This document shows, piece by piece, positions 17,819 to 21,358 of a stretch of 64,000 nucleotides of DNA. This stretch comes from a virus (Duplodnaviria; Heunggongvirae; Uroviricota; Caudoviricetes), in the IMG/VR virus record IMGVR_UViG_2563366960_000002. One strand, given 5' to 3'. The position numbers were made by a program, and so were the translations under genes. Every line of letters starts with the position of its first letter. Positions within the stretch are counted from its first letter, which is position 1. The notes beneath the pieces were generated by a model. That model had not been told where the DNA came from, made no database searches, and saw only the letters and a program-made list of their open reading frames with translations.

Positions 17819-17835
17819 TAAATTTATTAGAGCAA
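17819..17835 (-). promoter_or_regulatory. perfect-consensus C1 operator within an imperfect palindrome (bipartite Op72-like); candidate promoter of the tRNA-ban operon
   Basis: Reverse complement ATTGCTCTAATAAATTT is an exact match to the P1 operator consensus; the surrounding ACACTAATAAATTTATTAGAGCAAT is near-palindromic. Confidence 0.65.
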
Positions 17836-20091
17836 TATAGCCATAACGTCATGAGCAACACCACGAGTGTCTCCCTTACAAGACACAGAACGTCTGGCAA
17901 AGAGAGGTTCCACTCTGAAGCCACTATCCTGATAAAGTTCTCTGACGTTTGGCGCGCCACTGTTAGTAATGAGTACCTTTGCACCTCGGCGATGAGCATC
18001 CGTCAACAGAGACACCAGGCGTTTTTGCTCTTCAAACTTAAAGTCATGACCGGAATAGTTCGTAAACCCCTCTGTATTGGGGAGCGGTTCATACGGCGGA
18101 TCGCAAAAGATGACATCTCCTTCTCCGGCAGCTTCAATCACTGCTGCAAAATCACCGCATACAAACTCAGACCGCCCTTCCGCACCGAGGAAGGCTTCCA
18201 TCTCCTGTAATGGGAAATACGGAGTTTTATACTTCCCATAACCGACATTGAACTCACCGGCCTGGTTGTAGCGCGTCAATCCATTAAAACAATGTCGGTT
18301 CAGGAACAAAAACGCCGCTGCGCGATGTAAATCATCATAGACTTGTTTGTTAAACGCATTCCGTACTGCCAGGTATCCTTCCTGTGTGTTGTAGTCCTGG
18401 AAAAACTGATGCGCCAGTGCGATAAGTGAATGCGCCTCGCGTTGCAGAGTCTTGTAAAAGTTAATCAGGTCAGCATTCACATCATTTAGCAGATTTTCCT
18501 GGTATCCGGCATTCATGAAGACAGCTCCGCCACCGACGAAAGGTTCAATCAGGCGCTTCCCTTCTGGCAAATAGCGAAAGATTTGTTCCAGAACACCAAA
18601 TTTTCCACCGGCCCATTTGAATATGGACCGTTCGAATTCTGCCGCTGGTTTAAGTTTTCGCTCTTTTGTTTCACTTCCTTCTTTCTGCCGACATACGGCC
18701 TTAGTAATCCGATCGCCAATCCAGCGCATTACTGGTATTGCCATACTATTGCCGATCGCTTTGTAACGCGGTCCGTCAGCTGCAAGCATCGCGGCCTCTT
18801 CTTCGCTTAAATCTGGATAGTGATTGCGAAGATATGCCAGTTCATCTGAATTAACTTTTTTACGCTTTTCCGTAGGGATCAATGTATGTCCATCAGGAAA
18901 ACCTTGCAGCCTTTCACATTCGACAGGGGTAAGACGGCGGACAGCTACTTCTGCGTTTCTTACTTCATAGCAAACAGCTGTTGGATTTTTAGCCATTAGA
19001 GATGGTGAAGTATTCTTAGTTGCAGCATGTTGTGTACCGCTCATACGCTCAGGAAAAGCCAATGTAACAAGATGCTCATGGCTTTCTTGCTCACGTGCCC
19101 GCAATGTACCATGCCCTTCTGACCAAAAACCTGCTCCTGTGCTGCTAAAAACGGCAAGGTCAGTGGCATCTTTAAAATCTCTTGCCTTTACTGTCGATGC
19201 GGTTTCATCGTCAATATATTCCCCAAATGCCGCCATCCTGAAAGCGTTTACGGCTTTCGTCGATTTCATACCGGGTGGCATGTCAGCGTGTAGGCATGGA
19301 TTTAGGCTTTCGCCACTGATTGCAGCGCCATTTGCAATAATGGCGGAAGCGATTTCCTTCTTTTTTCGGCTCGGCGCAATATTCCGGCGCACGCCTTCGA
19401 ACTCAAAAAGTACCGTTGCGGGATCGAGGTCTGTTCGAGCACTTGCGACAACAAACACGCGTCGGCGTCGTTGTGCCACTCCGAAGTATTGGGCATCAAG
19501 GATTCTCCAGGCCACCTTTCGCTGCGGTCCATAAATACAACCACACTGCGGCCACTTTGGAGCATGGCAACCGGTTTTGCCATCCCACCGCCAGAACGCG
19601 TTACTTTTTCCTGATTCAGGTCGATCACCTGGTTCAAATGGCGCATCTTCTCCAGCCAATCCGGCAAGGAAACATCCGAAGGCGTTATCTGCCGATGACA
19701 GGACTCCTGGGACATTTTCCCAGACGATAACTGTCGGTTTGAGGAAGGACTCAGACCGTTTGTCGTCAATTGCATTTGCAAGCTCCACATACTTCAAAGT
19801 TAGCGCGCCGCGTTCATCATCAAGCCCACCACGTAAGCCCGCGATACTGAATGCCTGACAAGGCGTACCCCCGACGAGCACATCAGGGGATTCGATTTCC
19901 CCAGCCAGGACTTTTTGGGCAAGTTTTGTCATGTCGCCAAGGTTGGCGACATGGGGCCAGCGGTGCGCAAGAACGGCAGATGGAAAAGGCTCGATTTCAG
20001 CAAACCACGCCGGACGCATACCCAACGGTTCCCAGGCAATACTCGCGGCTTCAATTCCACTGCAAACAGATCCATAGCACAGCTCTTTCAC
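17827..20091 (-). CDS. dmt: bifunctional DNA methyltransferase: N-terminal C5-cytosine MTase fused to C-terminal Dam-like N6-adenine MTase (P1 Dmt-like)
   Basis: 754 aa; C5 motifs [44 protein letters not shown]; then [15 protein letters not shown] and DPPY of Dam-type enzymes. Confidence 0.85.
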
Positions 20092-20993
20092 TGCTTAGCC
20101 TCTCCACCAAGGGCATTTACCAGAGCATCAACCAGGCACGAAATTTCACTGGTCAACAGGAAGAAATCTGCGTCCAGTCGCTGCGCAACATCTTCACTAT
20201 CAATATCAGAGTTCTGCTCAAGCAATTCATCCGCAAATTTGACGCTGGTAAGGCTGAAGTTATGGTCCAGTGTAAATTTAATGCGGTTCTGCCAGTCGAG
20301 TGCCAACTTAGTGACGAGCTTGCCAGCTTCCAGGTGTGTGGAAATTTCATCGCTTCCCAAATCCTGCTTTTTCACTCGGGCAATACCGCCATCCTCAAGC
20401 ACTGCCTTAAGTTCTGCCGCATCCCCCATTTGAAATCCCTGTGGAGCACTACCATCACGTACCCAGTCGGTCAGCGTTAATTCAATGGGATTTTCAACAC
20501 TCAGGGGAACAACAGGAAGAGAACCAAGAGACTTACGCATAAGCGCGAGCATATCCTCTGCCTGCCGCGCGCTGGCATTGATATAGATACGTTTAGTTGA
20601 ACCGTCGTAGATCGCCTGGATAACAGAAAACTTTGAAAAAGCCCGTGGCAGAAGAGAATGCAGAACTTCGTCTTTCAGGGAGTCCTTCTCTGTTTTCTTC
20701 AGTTTACGCGCTTGTTCTTGCTCAAGTTTTTCAATTTTTTCTTGAATAGCTCGCTGGATAACCGGCGGGGGAAGAATTTTTGTTTCGCGCTTTGCTTCAA
20801 CAAGGATAAAACCATTTCCATGCATAGCGATAACTTCGGAATTATCACCAAATGGCGATACAAAACCGAACTTGGCCATATCCTGACTACCGCATGGCGT
20901 GAAAAGGATCATTTTCTTTTTATCTTCTAAGTCGGTCAGATCCGCCTCACGAGAAAGTTTATAAATAGTAATGTTTTTCCAGTGCTTAAACAT
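20088..20993 (-). CDS. hrdC: RdgC-like recombination-associated protein (P1 HrdC-like)
   Basis: Best start is the internal ATG ([13 protein letters not shown]) with AAGGG RBS, giving about 301 aa; the track ORF extends to 21107. Confidence 0.65.
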
Positions 20994-21342
20994 GTTGTAA
21001 CCCTTGAATATCAACCACAGAAAGCTCGTCTTTGTAGAAAAAGGCCAGGTTGTGGCACCCCCTCGTTTGAGCGTATGAGCTGGGACCAATTTCGTTCTTC
21101 CAGACAAATGGCTTCAAATCCGTACGGCGAAGCATAAAAACGCGATTTGTTCCGCTCTGATTCCCAATGAGGCAAAAGCCTTCTTTCACCTTGATAGCCT
21201 GCAAGTTGTCGAGTTCACCGCTGGTTACACGGCTATCGAACTCCTTGCGGCTTATTAGCTCCATCTGCATCTGACGACTCCAAACAAATGCCCATTGAAG
21301 GGCGATGGCTGAATGGTACCGAAAACACGACATAAAAAACAA
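20986..21342 (-). CDS. hypothetical protein, first gene of the C1-controlled operon ending in dmt
   Basis: 118-aa ORF beginning just downstream of the operator at 21342-21358. Confidence 0.4.
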
Positions 21343-21358
21343 TATTTATTAGAGCAAT
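21342..21358 (-). promoter_or_regulatory. C1 operator
   Basis: Reverse complement ATTGCTCTAATAAATAT, one mismatch to the consensus. Confidence 0.55.

Follow-up and report, generated by a model that had tools for sequence, protein, structure and literature searches.

A P1-type uhr-hrdC-dmt operon with C1 operators and a fused C5-cytosine/Dam-type methyltransferase gene

Gene content and identity of the locus

Three genes on the minus strand, in the order uhr-hrdC-dmt known from phage P1, lie within positions 17819-21358 of the window, that is, of the whole 64,000-nucleotide stretch of DNA that was analysed. The first, uhr (20986..21270), encodes 94 residues that are 100% identical to P1 Uhr; its profile matches are limited to PHROG 2213, and searches against Pfam and NCBIfam gave no match. 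It is followed by hrdC (20088..20993), whose ATG overlaps the uhr stop codon (ATGTTTAA) and whose product, a DNA-binding protein of the RdgC family, is identical to P1 HrdC at 300/301 residues (99.7%). The length of 301 residues is counted from the ATG annotated in P1, the mechanical open reading frame extending to a TTG at 21107. The third gene, dmt (17827..20091), starts with a GTG that overlaps the hrdC stop codon (GTGA) and lies downstream of a likely ribosome-binding site, GGAGAGG. It encodes a bifunctional DNA methyltransferase of 754 residues, 742 of which (98.4%) are identical in P1 Dmt. Translation of these genes may be coupled, as their stop and start codons overlap.

At the DNA level the region is 97.5% identical to phage P1 over positions 73-5001 of a 5001-nucleotide query (99% of the query), and the genes annotated there are the same. 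Its identity to the IncY E. coli plasmid pAVS0578-B is 100%, and it is present in 585 PLSDB plasmids. The P1 operon (AF234172 / NC_005856) shares with it the gene order, the operators, the promoter hexamers and the C5-then-Dam order of the methyltransferase domains. It differs by 12 residues in Dmt, including position 74 in motif IV (glycine here, tryptophan in laboratory P1), and by the tRNA and accessory-gene region downstream. The stretch very probably comes from a natural phage-plasmid of the P1 type (Punavirus, IncY) and represents its uhr-hrdC-dmt operon, a degree of confidence that applies to the explanation as a whole, namely operon identity together with C1 control and the roles proposed below for Dam, C5 and HrdC. 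This operon is already known from P1 and is ordinary, with nothing new about it: the operon with its operators and the two-domain Dmt was reportedly described as part of the P1 genome, and the function of Dam at pac has been known since 1988-1990.

An earlier note on this DNA had described a C1-controlled operon in which a small open reading frame and an RdgC homologue accompany a fused C5/N6 methyltransferase, a description with which the Pfam matches, the operators and the identity to P1 agree. The Pfam, NCBIfam and PDB assignments are concordant for the operon proteins. All the Dmt motifs that had been quoted were found (PCQ at 77-79, ENV at 125-127, QRRRR at 207-211, motif IX at about 385-400, WAGGK at 493-497, FVGGGAV at 518-524 and DPPY at 664-667), and a comparison with P1 Dmt, as proposed in the note, gives the same domain order, with 742/754 residues identical. 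The C5 core and the Dam domain of Dmt are both under purifying selection, with a dN/dS of about 0.1. An AlphaFold2 model of full-length Dmt, built on a 15-sequence alignment, was unusable (mean pLDDT 32.7, pTM 0.29), because every available homologue is at least 77% identical and the alignment is thus too shallow.

C1 operators, promoters and transcript ends

Operators were counted as matches, with at most three mismatches, to the 17-bp asymmetric C1 consensus ATTGCTCTAATAAATTT. The whole window contains nine such sites against 0.26 expected (nine were reached in 0/100 shuffles), and those at the operon ends have 0, 1 and 2 mismatches. Upstream of uhr, the operator Odmt (former Op68; ATTGCTCTAATAAATAT; 21342..21358, minus strand) has one mismatch, agrees letter for letter with the one annotated in P1 AF234172 and is also found at the equivalent place in a relative (L007). 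It abuts the sigma-70 promoter Pdmt (21313..21342, minus strand), the sequence of which is identical to that of annotated P1 Pdmt and comprises a -35 hexamer TTGTTT (21337-21342), an 18-nt spacer and a -10 hexamer TACCAT (21313-21318). The operator and the -35 hexamer share one base, and the operator and both hexamers are those of the P1 annotation.

At the other end lies the bivalent operator Obanab (former Op72ab; 17809..17836), identical to the P1 annotation, in which it controls ban expression, and in agreement with the P7 annotation. Its halves form an overlapping inverted pair, half a (17820-17836, minus strand) being a perfect consensus and half b (17809-17825, plus strand) having two mismatches; this is the perfect operator within a palindrome that had been noticed before. 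The dmt stop codon TAA (17827-17829) falls inside half a. The promoter of the next operon, P1ban (17807..17835, minus strand), overlies the same site, with -35 TTGCTC (17830-17835) and -10 TAATAT (17807-17812) hexamers equal to those annotated in P1. The earlier note had drawn the operon as bracketed by C1 operators: both sites are real, but control does not come from both ends, as Obanab carries P1ban for the downstream tRNA/ban operon. Likewise its operator-to-operator limits, 17819-21358, are exact as such, but the palindromic operator reaches 17809 and the -10 hexamer of its promoter 17807, both beyond that start. A generic sigma-70 scan reported neither Pdmt nor Pban, the consensus match of Pdmt being too weak, so that the promoter calls rest on identity to the mapped P1 promoters.

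No terminator-like site was found between the dmt stop codon and a hairpin with a T-run at 17617..17643 (minus strand), the first intrinsic-terminator-like structure 3' of dmt, located within the dicF-like region annotated in P1. An Rfam search of 17150-17830 at E <= 0.01 returned only tRNAs, with no DicF and no other family, and the fold of the Pban leader RNA is ordinary (z = -1.1). An internal late promoter that could give a stand-alone Dam, LPdam2, is predicted in the P7 record; it is not adopted here because the equivalent site in the window has two changes in the -22 box (AAGTTAATT vs AAGTTTCTT) and the exhaustive annotation of P1 contains no such promoter.

In the lysogen, C1 bound at Odmt, against the -35 hexamer of Pdmt, would silence the operon. 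Loss of C1 upon induction or infection would then release a single transcript spanning uhr, hrdC and dmt, while the 3' palindromic operator would serve the C1-controlled operon that follows (Pban: dicF-like RNA, tRNAs and ban). In P1, RT-qPCR after c1.100 thermal induction showed dmt to be induced in the manner of other C1-controlled genes (PMC4713147); expression of the methyltransferase on induction, as had been proposed, would extend to the present dmt by sequence identity.

Repression in the lysogen also bears on the possibility that Dmt provides the modification in a plasmid restriction-modification or defence system, guarding host and plasmid, and not a lytic function. Among the PADLOC models, those for Type II and orphan methyltransferases, DruM and DrmMII do match the two domains, but the top one is that of an orphan methyltransferase. 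The flanking genes include no nuclease: as in P1, uhr and hrdC precede dmt, which is followed by an operator, a small-RNA region and tRNAs. Nor could a C1-repressed gene sustain protective methylation in a lysogen. Such a role for Dmt is therefore extremely improbable.

The Dam moiety and packaging

The C-terminal part of Dmt (aa 487-754; 17830..18633, minus strand) is a Dam-type (D12, alpha-class) N6-adenine methyltransferase moiety that matches PF02086 (3.2e-57, aa 493-726, 194.6 bits vs a cut-off of 22) and TIGR00571 (252 bits vs 114.85). FVGGG (aa 518-522) precedes DPPY (aa 664-667), which is the alpha-class order, and the succession WAGGK, FxGxG, DPPY is common to Dmt and the D12 alpha-class enzymes E. 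coli Dam (PDB 2G1P) and phage T4 Dam. With E. coli Dam the moiety is only 40% identical (E 2e-59); of the residues through which that enzyme contacts GATC, K9, N120, L122, R124 and Y138 are kept, Y119F and R137K are conservative replacements and P134G is a change. Dmt further differs from the E. coli enzyme in its fusion to a C5 methylase and in its repression in the lysogen. The host Dam equivalog NF008152 is not reached (246.4 bits vs a cut-off of 441), which makes the moiety a member of the Dam family and not an orthologue of chromosomal Dam. Its dN/dS is 0.07-0.18.

By analogy with P1, the Dam domain would methylate GATC and keep fast-replicating phage DNA fully methylated, most importantly at pac, which is rich in GATC; pac in this state would be cleavable by the packaging enzyme regardless of host Dam. 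According to PMC12707154, which cites Sternberg & Coulby 1990, pac cleavage in P1 requires GATC methylation and dmt is required for it in dam- hosts, a role established in P1 that corresponds to the packaging function previously suggested for this methyltransferase.

HrdC and replication

HrdC matches the RdgC family over its full length (PF04381, 8.5e-98, 327.8 bits vs a cut-off of 25; NF001462, 379 bits vs 330). E. coli RdgC (PDB 2OWL) is a full-length homologue with 62% identity (E 2.9e-113), from which HrdC differs in that it is encoded by a phage, repressed by C1 and transcribed together with a methyltransferase. As a close homologue of RdgC, it most likely forms a ring-shaped dimer on DNA and would restrain RecA during lytic replication. 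The adjacency of hrdC and dmt is retained in a second lineage (L006) with an HrdC of only 53% identity, and the two lineages that link these genes differ in all other neighbour genes. C1 operators were sought in the second lineage and none was found; it presumably uses another repressor.

This linkage, together with the likeness of HrdC to RdgC and a cluster of GATC sites (23959-24130) in the nearby plasmid origin, fits an operon devoted mainly to the control of replication and recombination instead of packaging or anti-restriction, in which HrdC would block RecA on phage replication intermediates and rapid methylation by Dmt would avert sequestration by SeqA and nicking of hemimethylated DNA by MutH. 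In P1, however, uhr, hrdC and dmt are all non-essential, and their knock-down by CRISPRi causes no plating defect (PMC10695390). A replicative purpose would also leave the C5 domain and its variable region unexplained, and it is compatible with the explanation preferred here, not exclusive of it. As the main function of the operon, it is quite unlikely.

The C5-cytosine methyltransferase moiety

The N-terminal moiety of Dmt (about aa 1-470; 18682..20091, minus strand) is of the C5-cytosine methyltransferase type and scores above the cut-offs of PF00145 (4.5e-36, 125.3 bits vs 22, in two stretches from aa 8) and TIGR00675 (117 bits vs 100.65). Its motifs follow the canonical order: IV (GGTPCQ, with PCQ at 77-79), VI (ENV), VIII (QRRRR), IX and X (AIGNS, with GN at 447-448). 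Motif I, classically FxGxG, is here SGIEA (CSGIEAAS, aa 10-17); this form is conserved clade-wide and still falls within the alignment to the Pfam profile, which starts at position 5. In many relatives an intein is found at the catalytic Cys.

Whether this moiety is catalytic has to be weighed against its being an inert DNA-binding or scaffold extension, with Dmt acting as a single-specificity GATC methylase. GATC methylation is the sole one documented for P1, a literature search found no report of C5 activity, 5mC or a target for P1 Dmt, and many database annotations name the protein simply Dam; motif I is atypical, and in the laboratory P1 reference motif IV has the substitution G74W (WGTPCQ), with no known consequence. 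W74 is nevertheless restricted to laboratory P1 records. All the catalytic motifs, with Cys78, Glu125 and the arginines R208-R211 (motif VIII) among them, show no variation in an alignment of 15 Dmt relatives, GGTPC, the motif of Cys78, is retained in 119/120 cluster representatives, and the dN/dS of the C5 core is about 0.11 (vs Ro157, P7 and the 762-aa type). Moreover, blocks of the variable region are exchanged while the core is fixed, the pattern expected if specificity matters. An inert moiety is thus unlikely. The C5 domain would instead be an intact and selectively maintained cytosine methyltransferase, whose most likely role is to methylate progeny DNA in advance and so shield it from restriction once it enters the next host. 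Hypothetically, Dmt may in this way serve as a broad anti-restriction device.

The variable region of the C5 moiety

Residues 216-384 of the C5 moiety (169 aa; 18940..19446, minus strand) make up its variable (target-recognition) region. Among relatives it occurs in types of 87, 125, 169, 261 and 277 aa that are built block-wise, and its sub-blocks are found separately and reordered in unrelated proteins. The region is modular and exchanged between relatives. Self-BLAST of the variable regions gave no significant internal repeats, and the three T-[LV]-x-A-like motifs noticed in the region are a visual impression only. Phage P7 shares the operon and the operators, and its Dam (672 aa) is about 98% identical in each of the C5 core and the Dam domain; its variable region, in contrast, measures 87 aa and is 49% identical over 88 alignable positions. 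Shorter and divergent as it is, the P7 region implies a different C5 specificity.

Multispecific C5 methyltransferases are known in the Bacillus phages SPR, phi3T and H2. Like Dmt, they are phage-borne orphans expressed on induction, with a long variable region of exchangeable blocks, several of which have a T-[LV]-x-A-type motif. Dmt differs in that its blocks have no detectable sequence relationship to the target-recognition domains of these enzymes and in its fusion to Dam. Multispecificity would call for several independent target-recognition domains within one variable region, each with its own target; at the sequence level, nested block-wise variants and shuffled sub-blocks are seen. It is conceivable, though doubtful, that the C5 half is active and possibly multispecific, its target-recognition blocks being shuffled among P1-like phage-plasmids in an anti-restriction arms race. 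Such activity may have been overlooked, since only laboratory P1 has G74W beside the catalytic Cys and PacBio-type methylomes are poor at detecting 5mC. The Bacillus phage multispecific enzymes are also mentioned in PMC12707154.

Biological significance

The value of these results as a discovery is small, the operon, its operators, Dmt and its role at pac having long been known from P1. The allele described here is a natural one, with the canonical GGTPCQ where laboratory P1 has WGTPCQ, which makes natural P1-like plasmids better material for testing C5 function. The block-swapped variable regions of its relatives are ready-made specificity variants. Both are relevant to the passage across restriction barriers of P1-like phage-plasmids, which are widespread and in many cases carry resistance genes.

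Gene organization and relationship to P1

The interval 17819-21358 of this natural P1-like plasmid is the uhr-hrdC-dmt operon of P1, and it is structurally already known in every respect. Positions 17000-22000 are 97.5% identical to phage P1 over 99% of their length, other Punavirus genomes are similar, and the richly annotated P1 record supplies the gene names uhr, hrdC and dmt. Identities to the P1 proteins (742/754 residues for Dmt, 300/301 for HrdC and 94/94 for Uhr) settle the comparison of Dmt domain order called for in the earlier note: the order is the same in both. The E. 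coli plasmid pAVS0578-B (IncY, 94.9 kb), which comes from Swiss river or lake water, is 100% identical over 17800-21400, and 585 plasmids of the PLSDB database carry this stretch, 540 of them from Escherichia.

ORF calling places three genes on the minus strand, all in the same orientation. These are uhr (20986-21270, 94 aa), hrdC (20088-20993, 301 aa with the ATG start of P1, the mechanical ORF being longer, up to a TTG at 21107) and dmt (17827-20091, 754 aa, GTG start). Stop and start overlap in ATGTTTAA between uhr and hrdC and in GTGA between hrdC and dmt, and each of the three starts is preceded by a purine-rich stretch, a likely ribosome-binding site. Since a scan from the dmt stop to 17617-17643 finds no terminator-like site, the dmt transcript likely continues into the ban operon leader. 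At 17617-17643 (minus strand), ∼185 nt downstream of Pban and inside the region annotated as dicF-like in P1, a GC-rich hairpin precedes a T-run; this element would terminate a short leader RNA, and an Rfam search with it gives no family match.

C1 operators and promoters

Searching the window with the C1 operator consensus of P1 yields nine sites with at most three mismatches, where 0.26 are expected and no shuffle reaches nine; the operators are genuine. The upstream site (21342-21358, minus strand, one mismatch) is the Odmt of the P1 record (former Op68), located beside the sigma-70 promoter Pdmt, of which the −35 hexamer TTGTTT lies at 21337-21342 and the −10 hexamer TACCAT at 21313-21318 (minus strand). 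Downstream, a perfect site (17820-17836, minus strand) overlaps a site with two mismatches on the plus strand (17809-17825) to form an inverted pair, and the TAA stop of dmt (17827-17829) falls within operator half a. The P1 record names this pair bivalent Obanab (former Op72ab), which "controls expression of ban" with P1ban (−35 TTGCTC, 17830-17835; −10 TAATAT, 17807-17812; minus strand) and P2ban, and the P7 record agrees that Obanab controls ban. Operator and promoter sequences are identical in the window and in P1. Operators are found at both ends of the interval, as the earlier note had claimed, and the perfect palindromic one exists, but by the P1 and P7 annotation it governs the neighbouring ban operon and not uhr-hrdC-dmt; apart from this role, the note's observation is accurate and its interpretation largely right. 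The six further matches (one to three mismatches, in five stretches at 1378-1394, 3469-3534, 7142-7158, 37811-37827 and 39494-39510) are presumably other known C1-controlled promoters of P1.

In the lysogen, C1 bound to Odmt would abut the Pdmt −35 hexamer and keep the operon silent in the plasmid prophage, while loss of C1 would release a single transcript covering uhr, hrdC and dmt. In P1, the response of dmt is that of a C1-controlled gene, with strong induction upon thermal inactivation of C1.100 (PMC4713147). That Dmt belongs to a restriction-modification or defence system is unlikely, given this repression in the lysogen, the lack of an adjacent nuclease gene and a best PADLOC match to an orphan methyltransferase model.

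The two methyltransferase domains of Dmt

Every motif quoted for Dmt in the earlier note is present where expected, which makes its observation correct. The C-terminal domain matches the D12-class N6-adenine methylases (PF02086, 3.2e-57, aa 493-726), scores above the cut-off of TIGR00571 and shares 40% identity with E. coli Dam (PDB 2G1P, E 2e-59). Relative to this enzyme, K9, N120, L122, R124 and Y138 are kept, while Y119F, R137K and P134G are changed; relative to P1, 7 of 268 aligned positions differ (aa 487-754). Methylation of GATC can safely be predicted. P1 packaging needs Dam methylation of pac, and growth on dam- hosts needs dmt (PMC12707154, citing Sternberg & Coulby 1990; PMC7253447), and in a normal host CRISPRi knock-down finds uhr, hrdC and dmt all non-essential (PMC10695390). 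The densest GATC cluster of the window (23959-24130; six sites in 170 bp from 23959, five in 170 bp from 24065) sits at the position of oriR, the Dam-methylated plasmid origin of P1.

The N-terminal domain matches the C5-cytosine methylases (PF00145, 4.5e-36; TIGR00675 above cut-off) and keeps the catalytic Cys78, Glu125, the motif VIII arginines and motifs IX and X. Motif I alone is atypical (SGIEA), a variant kept across the whole clade in the alignment. The P1 record says of Dmt "perhaps at C5 cytosine", and the literature searched reports neither cytosine methylation by Dmt nor a C5 target. The C5 domain may thus be inert, but the conservation pattern argues otherwise. In pairwise Nei-Gojobori comparisons, the C5 core has a dN/dS of 0.11-0.12 relative to Ro157c2YLVW, P7 and the 762-aa type, and the Dam domain one of 0.07-0.18. 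Purifying selection acts on both halves, evidence that the C5 domain is not vestigial.

Between motifs VIII and IX (aa 216-384), Dmt proteins carry discrete, partly nested segments of 87, 125, 169, 261 or 277 aa within a core that is 97-100% identical between types. An exhaustive HMMER search restricted to the variable region finds the full-length type in the P1 cluster only, while a module of ∼38 aa (aa 280-317) recurs in >100 other clusters, and two more modules turn up in unrelated proteins, where their order and spacing differ. The pattern resembles the exchangeable target-recognition domains seen in multispecific methylases of Bacillus phages.

Laboratory P1 records carry Trp74 (VWGTPCQ; codon 74 of AF234172, equivalent to 19870-19872 of the window), while Gly74 (VGGTPCQ) is found in the window, in P7, in Ro157 and in 119 of the 120 cluster representatives. 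The C5 domain of reference P1 may therefore be damaged in motif IV. Among 397 plasmid records searched by tblastn, a single one (NZ_MN510447.1) matched the W-containing peptide at ≥99%, in two pieces covering 97% of it and scored on the whole peptide, not on residue 74. A 341-aa intein, which the window lacks, is present in many of the P1-like Dmt proteins (1095 or 1013 aa; clusters P0001, with 3523 member sequences, P0106 and others). This intein combines Hint_2 and LAGLIDADG_3 domains, starts with Cys, ends with His-Asn and is inserted directly ahead of the catalytic Cys of PCQ (GGTP|C...HN|CQAFS), as in the dmt of Ro157c2YLVW (L002:3822-7109).

The neighbouring tRNA region

Downstream of Pban, the region 14951-17150 (minus strand) encodes tRNAs Met, Ser, Thr, Tyr and Arg, versus Ile, Thr and Asn in P1. 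The tRNA-Arg(TCT) called at 17074-17150 (minus strand) has acceptor, D and T arms near-identical to those of tRNA-Asn(GTT) of P1, P7 and Ro157c2YLVW; as the anticodon stem-loop alone is replaced (CAGCCTTCTAAGCTG versus GTTGACTGTTAATCAAC), its anticodon arm seems to have been swapped within a conserved tRNA body. A non-P1 insert amid these tRNAs contains a sub-threshold Rfam match to the sRNA STnc100 (16132-16252, minus strand; 35.1 bits for a gathering threshold of 47, E 7e-5), and a 275-aa SPFH/Band_7 protein (15054-15881) occupies the tciABC position of P1.

HrdC, Uhr and a second hrdC-dmt lineage

The sole recognizable family match of Uhr is PHROG 2213, of which the label "NTP pyrophosphohydrolase" is supported by neither Pfam nor NCBIfam. 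HrdC aligns to the Pfam profile of the RdgC family along its full length (8.5e-98), scores above the cut-off of NF001462 and shares 62% identity with E. coli RdgC (PDB 2OWL, E 2.9e-113). RdgC is a ring-shaped DNA-binding dimer and an antagonist of RecA. By analogy, HrdC would restrain RecA on replicating phage DNA, and a role of HrdC and Dmt in replication and recombination would be compatible with the main explanation.

A second phage-plasmid lineage carries hrdC-dmt (L005/L006:3112-7999), directly followed 3′ by a glutaminyl-tRNA-synthetase-like gene with tRNA-synt_1c domains. A search for C1 operators in this lineage found none. Its Dmt has the same C5 half, with a 169-aa variable region identical to that of the window, while its Dam domain is 70% and its HrdC 53% identical. 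By this combination of an identical variable region with divergent Dam and HrdC sequences, dmt is a domain-level mosaic, and the hrdC-dmt linkage reaches past P1 itself.
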